A DNA stretch of 64,000 nt from NCBI RefSeq assembly GCF_033153115.1, contig NW_026889799.1, forward strand, positions 1,860,001 to 1,924,000, written 5' to 3'. The stretch is from Saccostrea echinata. Taxonomy: Eukaryota. The position numbers and the translations under genes were made by a program. A model generated the notes under the pieces. That model saw only the letters and a list, made by a program, of their open reading frames with translations. It searched no databases and was not told the origin of the DNA. Of this stretch, positions 22,101 to 27,582 are shown piece after piece. Position 1 is the stretch's first letter. The number at the start of each line of letters is the position of its first letter.

Positions 22101-23354
22101 CACACACAGAAGTTGATATATTTCCTCCCTGTAATTATTTTTAAATGGAAAAATTCTTATGTTTTAAATATTTGTCTATCATTCTTCCAATTTTTGCATT
22201 TGACATCTGATGCTCTGCAAAGAAAAAAATCACAACTAGAAAAGGGAGACACCTGCATATAGAAAGCAATTTGAAAGAGACGATTTTTTTTTCTTTATTT
22301 TTTTTTTAAGATGTACAATATATTGGAGTTTTAGAGTCAAACATAAGTTTTATCAATATTGCTTTTTCATTAGCTGTTTTTTAGTTTATTTTTCTCTTTT
22401 TTAACATAAAGGTGTTAGTGTAAATAGATCAACTGAAAAAAAATAACCATTCATGATTTTTCACATCTTTTAAACCCCATATTCAGTAAAATTATAATTA
22501 CTGCAACATGAATAGATAATCAATATGCAATTGCAGTCGAGTACATATTAAATGTCAACACATTTTAAGGAGGGCAAACTTGTGCTTTTGATGAAGATTT
22601 GGATTCTGAGAAAATGTGGAAATTACATCTTTCCATTATAAAATGAAACTTAGAGGGCGTCAGAAATGCATGTATCTCCTGTCTGAACTTTTCTGATTTC
22701 AAATACTATACTATAGTAATTAAGTGCAATTCACTTTTTAGGTAATCCTGTAGACTCCTATCACGAATGAGCATCATTCTAAAAAAAAATGTATGTGTGT
22801 AAATTTGTGTGTGTGTGTGGGGGGGGGGGGGAGGGGGGAGGGGGGTTTAGATGAATGAAATTGGAGCAGGCACCTACTGCCCTACTGTAGTGCGCAATAT
22901 TAAATCTGTCATGCCTGTCATGAAATCATAAATACATGTAAATGCCAATGGCTTTGGAAAATTTAAGTTAATAGAAAAACTATATACATGTAATGAGATG
23001 ATTTACAAGTCTTAAGATTTCACCCATAAGTCATTTATGGATTTGTTCAGAATATGGCGGCCAGATTTCCTTTGGAATACAAGGGTTCTCCATCATTTCA
23101 GAATTAACTGTGGCGCAAGACTTACGCGAAGTGCTAATATTCGCGGGCATTTCGCGACCGAATTTACGAAGGAACCACGAAATAAACTGAAAAACACGCT
23201 CCCCTATTAATCAATAGTTTAATACACAAACAGCAATTATGATTATAATTAAATTTATGTATTAAATGCGTTGTATTTACTATTTACATGTGTGTAATTG
23301 TTTATTTAATAGATATAGCATGCTGGGGATTCACGCCGGTGGACTGCAAAATTT

Positions 23355-23392
23355 CCAGCCAATGATTAACGAGCTAGGGTCACGTGGTCAGC
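23355..23392 (+). promoter_or_regulatory. Candidate internal promoter of the YR element (CCAAT box plus CACGTG E-box)
   Basis: CAGCCAATG and GGTCACGTGGTCA in a CpG-richer patch ~240 bp upstream of the SGNH ATG. Motif match only. Confidence 0.3.
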
Positions 23393-23622
23393 TGAGCTGA
23401 TCAGATGTATTTTGATACCCGCACGCTGACCACAGTTATTTTGAAACACGTATATTTCAAAGAAATTGGAAGCTGACGCTTAAAGAAAGCCAAGAAGTTG
23501 TGCTTTCTAAGTTACGTTATTTGAAAATGATTATTCTTTTAGTCGGCTTATAGTCTGGTAGTGCGGGGGTATCGTTTAAGTAGCCGTACAAAGAGTTTTT
23601 TTTAAGTGTGAAGTTGATAAGT

Positions 23623-24231
23623 ATGGCTTCTGGACTGAATGTTTGTATCATTGGACATTCTTACATCCGTAGATTGGAGGAATATTGTTCTAGTTTGGGT
23701 ATAATTAATTTGAAGTTGGATGACAGTTTTAATGTTAATTTCCGTGGGAAAGGAGGTCTTTGTTTACGCCACCTTAATGTGTCTCAAGGGCTCGGTGCTA
23801 GAAGGGAACTTTTTCATTTTATTTCGCCGCCAGATATTATTTTCCTACAGGTCGGGGAAAATGATATAAGTGATCTGACTTGTTGTGAAAAGTTAGCCGG
23901 AGACCTCATATCTGTGGCAGCATCATTGCGGGATGGCGTCGGTGTAAAAATAGTGATGATTAGACAGTTGATACGACGATTGCCTTTCGCAGCCTGCAAA
24001 AGCTTTAATGACAAAGTAGTAAAGACAAATACGCAGCTGGAGATCAGGACCCAGTCTTTGCCGTGGATTCATTTTTGGTGCCAAATGGGTTTCTGGCATG
24101 ACTTGAGCTATCTGGGTCCAGATGGCGTACATCTATGCTGCACCCCCTCCCACGACCAGCCCATGTGGAAGTTCCTTCGAAGTATAAGGAATGCAGTGAT
24201 TCAGTCGCCTAACTTATTAAGGCCAGTATAA
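23623..24231 (+). CDS. SGNH/GDSL-type hydrolase (transposon-associated), 202 aa from ATG
   Basis: All four SGNH blocks are present: IIGHSY (I), GKGG (II), GEND (III), DGVH (V). Intronless, uninterrupted ORF. Confidence 0.85.
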   Translation: MASGLNVCIIGHSYIRRLEEYCSSLGIINLKLDDSFNVNFRGKGGLCLRHLNVSQGLGARRELFHFISPPDIIFLQVGENDISDLTCCEKLAGDLISVAASLRDGVGVKIVMIRQLIRRLPFAACKSFNDKVVKTNTQLEIRTQSLPWIHFWCQMGFWHDLSYLGPDGVHLCCTPSHDQPMWKFLRSIRNAVIQSPNLLRPV

Positions 24232-24660
24232 CATTGTCTCATTATACCTGTATTGCACAGAGGGGTGTTTATGTTTATGGTAGGCTATACAAGATTTAGG
24301 TCGTAAAGATAAAGTTAGATACTCTGTCAGACAATGTCGTTAATTAAACGCAAGTAGATGACTGACTTGCGGTTAGGCATTTAAATATGTTCCAAATAAT
24401 CATAATTACACAGGCACGTTTGGTTAGCTTGTTTCTGTGAATACATAATTTATTAAGCAGATTTTGCCCTATTTGTTCTGTTATTCAAACTCGATGGCTT
24501 TATTAAGGACCGGGTTGCTCATAATGACAATGGTTTCCGTCTTATGTAGGACATGGTTACGGATTAATCAAAGTTTCCCATATTGTTTATTCTTCGGTGC
24601 AAAATATGTAGGAAACTATAGTATAGAGTCTATATTTTTTCATCTGTTTGATTAAGATTG

Positions 24661-25385
24661 GTACAGAGTTTTAGGCCATATGTACTTATCATGTGGAAGT
24701 AGAGGTACAAAGTTTATGAACCTACCCACGTTGTTTAACAATGGTACAGAATTTGGGCCTTATATTTACTTATTGTGTGGGAGTTTGGGCACAAAGTAGA
24801 TCTGTGCCTACCCACGTTGTTTACATGTAACAATAGTACAAAGTTTATTAGGCCGTATATATGTACTTATTGTGTGGGAGTCTAGGTACAAAATATACCT
24901 GTACCTACCCACGTTGTTTAGCAATAGTACAGAGTTTAGGCCGTATATATGAACTTATTGTGTGGGAGTTTTGGTACAAAGTATACCTGTACCCGCCCAC
25001 GTTCTTTAGCAATAGTACAGAGTAGGCCGTATATATGTACTTATTGTGTGGGAGTTTGGGTACAAAGTATACCTGTACCCGCCCACGTTCTTTAGCAATA
25101 GTACAGAGTAGGCCGTATATATGTACTTATTGTGTGGGAGTTTGGGTACAAAGTATACCTGTACCCACCCTCGTCGTATAACAATAGTACAGAGTTAGGC
25201 CATATATATGTACTTATTGTGTGGGAGTCTAAGTACAAAGTACATCTGTACCTACCCACGTTCTTTAGCAATAGTACAGAGTAGGCCGTATATATGTGCT
25301 TGTTGTGTGGGAGTTTTGGTTCAGAGTTTTTATGTACCTTTCCACATATTAAATAATAGTACAGAGGTTAGTTTTTATATGTACT
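24661..25385. repeat. Minisatellite, ~86-bp unit, ~8.3 copies
   Basis: Unit GTACAGAGTAGGCCGTATATATGTACTTATTGTGTGGGAG...CCCACGTT..AGCAATA starts at about 24661, 24744, 24836, 24927, 25015, 25101, 25187, 25274 and 25359. Confidence 0.95.
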
Positions 25386-25719
25386 AGTCGCATTTGGAAT
25401 TGGAAAAAGTGGTTTTCGTTATCAAGTTTATTAAGAATGTTGATATGGATGGAATTTACCTATAGATCAATTGAGATAATAGGTTATGTATTATCGTATT
25501 AATGTTAATGATTGTGTTGAGAAAGTTTTTTAATTCCTACCCAGTGTTAGTTTTATCAAAGTCTAATATATTCGCACATATCGTAAGGTGACAAGATATA
25601 TAAAAGCGAATGTTGGGTATTTCTTTTAATGATTTGTCATTCATATAACCAGGTAAATATTATAAGGTGCGGTTACCAATTTGGCATGTTTTACACGGTT
25701 TTGGTATGTTTCAGTAACA

Positions 25720-26945
25720 ATGACTCCTAACAAGCTGGAAAAACACCGAGGAAAAGGAGGAGGATTCATTCCCCGGGGATCACAGTGGTAGAACCAACTA
25801 CATCTGTACCAACCCTGCCTCAGAATAACGGCACAGGAGAACCATTTGATGGAGCTCAAGGAGCCACTCATCAAACTACAAGTCTTGAACTTCGGCCTGC
25901 TGTCACTCAAGTGTCAAATCAAGTCTCGATTGACTATGCTGAGCTGGCGAAACTAATACTGGTACAACAACAGAATTTAGGTACGCACACAGCGTCCCAA
26001 CCTCTAACTCTGAATCAAGCTACAACAGCGTTGCCCCTGTCTCTTGCAGATCTGAACTCAACTACTTGTTCCATTTTGGCTGCGTCGCTCTCGGGAGCTT
26101 CACGTGCTGCATACAGACAGTCGTGGAACTTATTTCAAACTATGACTAAAGGTCCTAGCTCTCTTCCATTGAGTCTACAAAATGTTTGTAATTTTATCGG
26201 TTATCTATTCGATAAGCAGTACAGTGCCAGTAGCATTGCATAACATGTGTCTGCACTGAGTTACCTGCATAAACTTCTGAACCTCCCTGACCCAACTCAA
26301 ACCTTTATTGTAAAGAAATTACTTAAAGGGTGTAGTAGGTTGTTACCTTCACAGGATACTAGGTTACTTATCACTAAGGAGATCCTGCACAAACTTATCA
26401 AGGCAACTAAAATGACAGTATCTCAGCCACTGAATCAATTGTTGTTAAAAGTATTGTATCTCCTTTGTTTTAATGCATTCCTACGGTTAGGAGAGGTTGT
26501 TGTAAAGTCAGTAGCAGACAGAGGTCGGGTTTTGCAAGTACAAGATGTCACATTCCATGGTGATGGGTACCTGCCACACAGTGTTCAAATTGTCATTCGT
26601 CACCACAAAACACAAAAGAAAAATGATCCTATGATTATCTTTATTCAGGGAAGTTCGGGAAGTGCATTCTGTCCTGTCCAAGTCCTGCATGAGTATTGTA
26701 CAAAATCACCTCACTCAGCAGGTCCATTTTTTCAATTTGTAGACGGCACCCCGGTCACTTACTCGTTTGTTAGCTCTCAGCTTTCAAAAGCCATATCCTT
26801 TGCAGGATTTGACCCCAAGTGTTTTAAAGGTCAAAGTTTTCGTATAGATGCGGCCACTCATGCTGCGCAAATAGGATATTCAGAAAGTTGTATTCAACAT
26901 TTGGGACGTTGGAATTCAGAAGGATAAAATCATTTCAATTTTAAT
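25720..26945 (+). pseudogene. gag-like stub fused to a defective tyrosine recombinase
   Basis: MTP(K)QAGKTPRKRRR after a 1-nt frameshift, then the YR N-terminal region (ASLS..SRAAY..W..F) with TAA at 26241-26243, then the catalytic domain: FLRLGE (R), HKT (K), GQSFRIDAAT (H->Q in HxxR), LGRWNS. The catalytic Tyr segment is deleted and RIKSFQF* resumes out of frame. Confidence 0.88.
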
Positions 26946-27582
26946 AGGGTATAAGATAAAATACCAAATATTATCTATATATAGAGCTGCAGTTGGCATT
27001 GAGCAGTTGGCAGTCGTATATGGAACTCCAAACTTATGTACTTATTTCTATTTTTTTCCGCGAAATGATAGGGATGTACAGCTGCTTAATTCCTTTTAAT
27101 TAAAAAATAAATCACTATAAGCTAATCATGACTTCTCATGCATTTACGACGAGCGGAAAAACAACCTCGAATGTTTTATATATGCAACCATGAAAACCCT
27201 CCTTTTTATCAACATTGAAATAAATACTGGGAGACCTCTTTGGATATTTGGAGCTTAACTTCATTGAATGTGAATATATTACCTTAAAATGCTCTGGAGG
27301 TGGCATTTAACTCTGTTCGTATAATACTTTATACTCCATATTGTATTAAATTTTAACATCAGGTTTTGTAAATACATTCGAGGTAGGTGTTTTTCCGAAC
27401 TTGCCGGAAACGACCAAAAAGATGCGATCTCACCCTATCCTTACGCCCAGTGAATGGGGTTGCTTTAAAACCAAACGATTTATAAAATTGTTTAGACATA
27501 GGCTTCTCATACCTCAATACGTATACGGACAGAGATACTTATACGGATATATCAGATAGAACATTCTCTAATATTGCTCTTT

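Follow-up and report, generated by a model that had tools for sequence, protein, structure and literature searches.

A decayed copy of an esterase-first, Ngaro-type retrotransposon family in the oyster Saccostrea echinata

Why should a tyrosine recombinase (YR) gene be preceded by an SGNH hydrolase gene, a tandem array and a fragment of gag, with no reverse transcriptase (RT) gene among them? The question is raised by a stretch of 64,000 nt of Saccostrea echinata DNA (contig NW_026889799.1, forward strand, 1,860,001-1,924,000), the whole of which we refer to as the window. An earlier note, made from the sequence alone, had described this arrangement and had offered three explanations for it: an undescribed subgroup of DIRS/Ngaro elements, a circularly permuted integration, and a streamlined non-autonomous derivative. 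Using open reading frames (ORFs), Tandem Repeats Finder (TRF) and protein profiles, we confirmed the layout, including the 86-bp period of the array and the placement of all modules on the + strand. We conclude, with a probability of about 0.85, that the window holds a dead, RT-less copy of a family of Ngaro-type elements that has the order SGNH-array-gag-RT/RNase H-YR, carries split direct repeats and likely undergoes alternative splicing.

The case for such a family comes from relatives of the window copy. We collected 85 loci: 80 metagenome loci found by YR alignment (the best 80 of 179) and five contigs (L081-L085) from bacterial genome bins. L085 together with L081-L084 suggests that animal DNA is present in such bins, and we take these contigs to be co-assembled DNA of host animals. 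The SGNH ORF lies upstream in all 20 loci that have at least 1.9 kb of sequence 5' of the gag core (13 families at 90% identity) and 5' of gag in 24 loci overall. It was found within 500 nt after YR in none of the 51 loci that have at least 700 nt 3' of YR; in five loci an SGNH ORF occurs 0.96-2.07 kb past YR, each time beyond a junction between the B and A repeats described below (B|A junction). The place of RT and RNase H is between gag and YR, where 26 of the 85 loci have them as an intact ORF, and the Pfam RVT_1 domain was recognized in all four pol ORFs tested. SGNH-array-gag-RT/RNase H-YR, the order that the earlier note had proposed to look for, is thus the normal one in intact relatives and a trait of the family, and the co-occurrence of SGNH and YR across these loci disposes of the possibility that their adjacency in the window is due to chance.

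Between SGNH and gag, arrays or other repeats were present in 16 of 24 loci (weak in four of them), with periods of about 25 to more than 200 bp, as compared with none of 27 RT segments, which, being coding, are an imperfect control. Because nucleotide comparison of the window with loci L001-L080 gave no match at E 1e-8, it is the position of the array that is conserved and not its repeat unit. (Searching with the array motif yielded 14 matches in viral contigs, one for each locus; these are excluded from all tallies.) In the window, nine units could be traced by motif from 24680 to about 25400, in fair agreement with the length of ~730 bp given previously. Among gene models, SGNH is linked to a full gag in P0087 (Magallana gigas) and to a gag N-terminus in P0117. 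Moreover, the alien tails of seven of seven SGNH models can encode the gag start in another frame, as against 41-82 of 5000 shuffles, in a comparison whose patterns were picked after inspection and in which several models come from one family. A quick YR tree placed the window YR among oyster proteins, in a group with L001 and L002 that had 97% support. In one locus a GIY-YIG ORF was seen past the element (L015:6072-6437); it is probably an inserted Penelope-like fragment.

To what class does the family belong? Ngaro-like elements are defined structurally by split direct repeats and by the absence of a methyltransferase (PMC4157794). The family has gag, RT/RNase H and YR in that order on one strand, its pol ORFs (581-612 aa, ending just past RNase H) gave no methyltransferase match in four of four cases, and it carries repeats of the form A1...B1-A2-B2, the internal ones lying 3' of YR. 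We therefore assign it to the Ngaro-like elements by structure, the YR tree containing no named references. The complete pattern is seen in L085, which comes from a 228-kb contig and in which A1 (6196-6407) is followed by SGNH, a 34-bp array, gag, YR, B1 (11359-11583), A2 (11579-11790), a 52-nt spacer and B2 (11843-12065), all inside a 32-bp satellite. A1 and A2 are 100% identical over 212 nt and B1 and B2 98% identical over 225 nt. L085 is also without RT/RNase H, its breakpoint being out of frame, unlike that of the window. The pattern is partly present in L006, L042, L047, L067 and L078. So far as it could be checked, then, the combination of the family order with Ngaro split direct repeats bears out the suggestion of an undescribed DIRS/Ngaro subgroup.

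Several further features of the ends were observed. The satellite surrounding L085 is long (1-6200 and 12061-20709), and the contig that holds both comes from a bacterial genome bin. A C-rich tract, a candidate priming or strand-transfer signal, follows A2 immediately or after a few bases in five of five split-repeat loci (L085:11791, L047:5215, L042:4630, L006:6401 and L067:3267). The 3' untranslated region (UTR) contains short repeated motifs or arrays in L001, L003, L004, L007, L035, L047, L060 and L081, and a perfect 16-bp palindrome occurs four times in that of L070 (3410-3578). In four families with flanking sequence, inverted arms of 16-18 bp are formed by the 3' end and a site 32-38 nt inside the 5' end, with a hairpin preceding the 5' arm. 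When joined, the arms resemble a YR site, and we predict that they serve as one. The corresponding arm-spacer-arm pattern is also found in L006, L047, L052, L054, L063, L070, L078 and L085.

A similar pattern in the window scored 10.5, the second best of four matches in the 64 kb, and this score was equalled in 1 of 1000 shuffles of 23000-23620. It lies 392 nt from the SGNH start codon, compared with 274-464 nt in eight relative loci. A weight matrix derived from nine post-YR motifs of L001, L003 and L081, and built after the resemblance had been noticed, scored highest at 23048 (19.3 bits, as against 13.9 for the next best position anywhere in the 64 kb). Given this match and the junction pattern, 23000-23230 probably derives from the 3' end of an element. 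The CpG observed/expected ratio of that segment is 1.46, as against 0.14-0.72 across the preceding kilobase, and an AATAAA lies 50 nt upstream of the junction. The window copy probably reads B|A-SGNH...YR-partial UTR, and its B-like left end likely arose by insertion at the junction of another copy or from a circle that was opened in the 3' UTR. Insertion into pre-existing copies has been described for DIRS-1 (PMC7192593).

The window copy itself is dead (Table 1). Its YR matches a YR profile over 26037-26933 (E 7e-143) and is 89% identical to the intact P0023, but it contains a premature TAA (26241-26243), the His of its HxxR motif is changed, and a small deletion near 26921 has removed the catalytic Tyr. 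The gag ORF is frameshifted immediately 3' of its ATG at 25720. The distance from the gag start to YR is 0.32 kb, as compared with ~2.6 kb in L001, L006 and L081; hence ~2.3 kb, comprising the gag core and RT/RNase H, is missing. Protein profiles found neither RT nor the gag core in any of the six frames of the 64 kb (best E 0.63 for RT and 0.8 for the gag core). SGNH lies 1.8 kb upstream of YR. The deletion created an in-frame fusion: gag stub and YR share a single frame (25731-26927), interrupted by the above-mentioned TAA. The SGNH ORF is open, with 12 substitutions relative to its closest homologue, P0001, one of them at the near-invariant H154. No long direct or inverted terminal repeats were found in the copy, no second copy of the A region (23231-23622) was found within the window, and 26945-27570 showed no similarity above shuffles to the left remnant or the A region. 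A search for a target duplication around the copy gave nothing convincing, only two 9-mers. The copy thus has no RT/RNase H, active YR or split direct repeats of its own, and we regard it as a fossil, a decayed derivative rather than an intact Ngaro-like member, which lost RT/RNase H through internal deletion. In this sense the streamlined derivative of the earlier note was half right: RT has been deleted, but the copy is decayed and nothing shows that it was amplified in that form.

Table 1. Features of the element copy in the window (positions are those of the 64,000-nt stretch)
Feature	Position	Strand	Remarks
Putative element 3'-end remnant (3' UTR / B repeat)	23000..23230	+	left boundary approximate; inferred
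B|A junction-like site, predicted YR recombination site	23218..23266	+	13-bp inverted arms (12/13 paired), 23-nt spacer
Likely A repeat and 5' leader	23231..23622	+	by analogy with L085 (A1 of 212 nt)
SGNH/GDSL esterase ORF, 202 aa	23623..24231	+	S13, G45, N80, D167 and H170 intact
Predicted intron enclosing the array	24226..25714	+	GT in final SGNH codon; AG 5 nt 5' of gag ATG
86-bp tandem array	24678..25327	+	TRF: period 86, 7.4 copies, score 808
gag N-terminal stub	25720..26036	+	basic N-terminus, IDYAELAK motif; cut by ~2.3-kb deletion
Tyrosine recombinase (YR), dead	26037..26944	+	last residues in another frame
3' UTR start	26945..27570	+	right boundary undefined, extent presumed; without B1-A2-B2 block

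How would YR be expressed from an intact element? The modules had been described as intronless, which holds for the single ORFs, none of which is interrupted; the family, however, very likely undergoes splicing, with the array probably inside an intron. The RNase H motif LSRxQ, just 5' of YR, has a CAG codon either at its Gln or two codons further along, in every one of 61 loci and likewise in 39 of 39 non-redundant loci (in all seven with CAA, the next Gln codon is CAG), whereas CAG accounts for 182 of 326 Gln codons (56%) in RT ORFs. A donor, G|GTGAG, is located at the 'GE' motif of gag in 7 of 13 gags checked, and for L061, by a calculation of frames, the donor and acceptor phases join the gag N-terminus (gag-N) to YR. 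Fusions of gag-N to YR at that very junction are seen in gene models from Saccostrea, Ostrea and Crassostrea and in Logan contigs; P0031 has 435 aa on a contig of 1353 nt. In P0087, gag reads on past the 'GE' motif, and the oyster protein P0025 has RNase H residues upstream of YR. No Met precedes the domain in the YR frame in 45 of 63 rows, a few of which matched a wrong motif. We consider it likely, from the conserved splice signals and the gene models, that YR is made as a spliced gag-N/YR fusion. As to the first intron, 15 of 21 relatives have a motif resembling an acceptor no more than 22 nt from the gag ATG, compared with 207 of 1252 ATGs in the window. The gene model of the window locus, P0063, joins across the predicted array-bearing intron, and other oyster models join SGNH to the gag start. 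GTRAG donor motifs were also observed in the leader 5' of SGNH in 5 of 10 loci checked (L085:6421, L015:464, L061:1422, L070:4148 and L054:5086-5115); judging from these motifs, a leader-to-gag splice could skip the esterase. A search of sequencing runs listed no RNA dataset with the element (best share 0.20). Spliced transcripts of YR retrotransposons may have been mentioned by Goodwin and Poulter in 2004.

We envisage the following scheme. Full-length unspliced RNA would serve as genome and would be translated into the esterase from its first ORF. A splice that skips the array, to the acceptor just 5' of the gag ATG, would give Gag and RT, and a second splice, from the gag 'GE' donor to the CAG of 'LSRxQ', would yield the gag-N/YR fusion from doubly spliced RNA. 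The cDNA would then be closed into a circle, which YR would integrate at the inverted arms of the B|A junction. Circle formation and integration by YR follow the model for the order (PMC3266345 and PMC7192593). The esterase, by analogy with what has been proposed for the ORF1 esterase of a long interspersed element (LINE), might act on lipids or membranes as a helper of the particle.

Do other explanations account for the gene order and the ends? If the esterase-first order merely reflected permutation or tandem arrangement of an ordinary Ngaro element with its hydrolase last, this would fit the five loci with SGNH 3' of YR, the junction-like site upstream of SGNH in the window, and the hydrolase located 3' of YR in a Xenopus Ngaro (10.1101/2021.08.05.455354). 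However, this explanation is largely refuted, and we give it hardly any credence: a B|A junction separates YR from SGNH in all five such loci, the 5' ends of four families are sharp, lie 274-352 nt upstream of SGNH and have flanks that differ, SGNH adjoins YR in none of the 51 loci, and L085 runs from satellite through A1 to SGNH at its 5' end and from B1-A2-B2 to satellite at its 3' end. Since SGNH directly follows A1 in L085, with satellite on both sides, permutation does not explain the order, although it, or a tandem insertion, may explain the junction-like left end of the window copy. A second proposal, that part of the clade is without split direct repeats and instead has a new terminal structure, a 5' hairpin with an offset inverted repeat of 16-18 bp, draws on the four flanked families, which show that structure with no long repeats or internal complementary region, and on L063, which is head-to-tail with a 6-bp overlap. 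We demoted it on account of L085 and think it doubtful: these arms and this hairpin also make up the B1|A2 junction in the repeat-bearing L078 and L085, and collapse of B1-A2-B2 to a single B in short-read assembly would yield exactly such contigs. Such collapse is the simplest, albeit unproven, reading of the repeat-less ends.

The missing RT also admits other readings. An RT-less subfamily that is non-autonomous, moves in trans and has been amplified is compatible with the family layout, and L085, likewise without RT/RNase H, has identical A repeats that suggest a recent move; the window deletion, moreover, leaves gag-N and YR in frame. It is nonetheless unlikely that the window copy belongs to such a subfamily, as the breakpoint of L085 is elsewhere and out of frame, the window junction is common to none of 16 aligned relatives (of 40 homologues found), and several lesions, together with a lack of terminal repeats, mark the window copy. 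Much less probable still is reverse transcription of a spliced gag-N/YR RNA. The missing segment does cover the predicted gag-to-YR intron, but the join lies outside both splice sites, so that the loss extends to ~55 codons that the spliced product would contain, LLDxVFxG among them, and the upstream array intron is still present. Because the join falls outside both splice sites, deletion at the DNA level is the most likely origin of the RT-less state.

Against our conclusion that the window holds a dead copy of an esterase-first Ngaro-type family must be set a number of observations. Complete split repeats were seen in one SGNH-first copy, and the four families with flanks have sharp ends without long repeats. 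The order in oysters rests on gene models, the loci being 29-47% identical in YR. The SGNH profile comes from the 5'-type family and could miss a distant hydrolase of a 3' type (among ORFs of at least 110 aa 3' of YR, none resembled an SGNH hydrolase). The YR tree was made by a quick method and contains no named Ngaro, DIRS or PAT references. The donor at the 'GE' motif was not seen in 6 of 13 gags, and no acceptor was seen near the gag ATG in 6 of 21 relatives. Finally, the role suggested for the esterase rests on analogy.

That the first ORF encodes an SGNH/GDSL hydrolase is evident from its fold, its Ser-Gly-Asn-His blocks and its DxxH motif. In an alignment of 112 sequences, G11, H12, S13, G45, G78, N80, D167 and H170 are kept in at least 90% of rows. 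An AlphaFold model (pLDDT 94.5) had mostly SGNH/GDSL hydrolases as its top Foldseek matches (best E 2.7e-6); it replaced a first fold from 20 sequences (pLDDT 61.9), which had no match at E <= 0.001. Pfam GDSL matches were obtained for the 5' ORFs of three of three relatives, the window protein itself scoring E 0.16. Its closest homologues are oyster proteins, with 94% identity to a Saccostrea echinata model; P0063, which bears the same species label, is not counted as independent because it is the gene model of the window locus itself. The top sequence match in the Protein Data Bank (PDB) was 4C1B, of the LINE ZfL2-1, at a non-significant E of 0.36, and 4C1B was not among the listed Foldseek matches. 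The ZfL2-1 ORF1p esterase hydrolyses esters and binds liposomes (PMC3905857), and by analogy we put at about one in two the chance that the present esterase has a lipid- or membrane-related function in the particle. With 2546 representatives at E <= 0.001, the SGNH family is a large one, so that elements of this kind probably figure among catalogued consensus sequences, even if nobody has remarked on the layout. One protein, P0090, has 2341 aa with six stretches that match the SGNH profile and a Pfam OSK (Oskar) domain score above cut-off. No matches came from scanning viral and metagenome contigs for SGNH or viral contigs for YR.

Other features of the window adjoin the copy or lie farther off. 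An imperfect palindrome of ~100 bp (27583-27680) probably represents a small repeat element distinct from the adjoining copy, and a candidate right end near 27720 was dropped as lying beyond it. Arrays with units of ~145 bp at 29188-31000 and 59182-59893 are related to one another and oppositely oriented. Dispersed repeat pairs of 86-93% identity were found at 14407-15425/61888-62908, 20922-21304/46497-46878 and 18475-18809/19426-19770, and a Sushi (SCR) domain exon of a host gene lies on the opposite strand (32445-32657, -).

What would such a family offer? For the questions of how YR retrotransposons express their recombinase and what their accessory hydrolases do, the family provides exact, testable splice sites, a short predicted B|A recombination site and a free-standing, easily assayed esterase. 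Many oyster gene models called 'uncharacterized' or 'xerD homolog' are explained as transposon transcripts. There is also a warning: in assemblies made from short reads, Ngaro ends may be collapsed, so that the elements falsely look permuted or devoid of repeats. We tentatively raise a broader possibility, that of an uncatalogued and widespread Ngaro subgroup of marine invertebrates that places the esterase first, has an array-filled intron, makes YR only as a spliced gag-N/YR protein and has RT-less copies that move in trans. If so, the subgroup would be the convergent counterpart, among YR retrotransposons, of the LINE ORF1 esterase.

How, finally, does the family compare with known systems? 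DIRS1-like and PAT-like elements and Cryptons have the tyrosine recombinase in common with it, and PAT also has split direct repeats, but a methyltransferase is found in DIRS1 and PAT, DIRS1 has inverted repeats together with an internal complementary region, and Cryptons are without gag or RT (PMC3266345, PMC4157794 and PMC13465315). We rejected a DIRS1-like assignment on the grounds of arms of only 16-18 bp and no methyltransferase, a PAT-like one for want of a methyltransferase, and a Crypton in view of the gag stub in the window, RT in relatives and RNase H residues 5' of YR in P0025. No internal complement of the termini was found in the four flanked families beyond scattered 9-14-mer matches. 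A captured accessory GDSL/SGNH ORF, with a proposed membrane role, occurs in the bdelloid Vesta and Athena elements, but as ORF3 in integrase-type long terminal repeat (LTR) or Penelope-like elements without YR (PMC5408684). ZfL2-1 (PDB 4C1B, PMC3905857) likewise has an SGNH esterase upstream of a retrotransposon polymerase gene; it is, however, a non-LTR element whose esterase is part of ORF1p together with a coiled coil, whereas here the esterase is a free-standing ORF of ~200 aa. The Cafeteria Ngaro elements share an A1-[ORFs]-B1A2B2 structure and the occurrence of internal deletion variants, although their deletions remove ORF1 and not RT, and a hydrolase is unmentioned in the text examined (PMC8547959).

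We found no esterase-first Ngaro or other YR element in the open literature searched (subscription papers and Repbase/Dfam being outside its scope), nor the layout in the available text of 10.64898/2026.02.25.703748, PMC9341512, PMC3783388, PMC2632668, PMC6681497 and PMC7192593. The lone paper found to pair Ngaro with SGNH (10.1101/2021.08.05.455354) describes the amphibian elements DIRS-53_XT and DIRS-54_XT. Like the present family, these have A1...B1-A2-B2 repeats (236/152 bp, compared with 212/225 bp in L085), gag, RT/RNase H, YR and an extra SGNH ORF, and no methyltransferase. In the amphibian elements, however, the hydrolase lies directly 3' of YR, where none of our 51 loci has it within 500 nt, and all ORFs overlap, whereas in the present family the hydrolase comes first and is separated from gag by ~0.7-2 kb of mostly array-bearing, non-coding DNA. 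We regard the esterase-first layout as a new and widespread variant within the known Ngaro-type elements.

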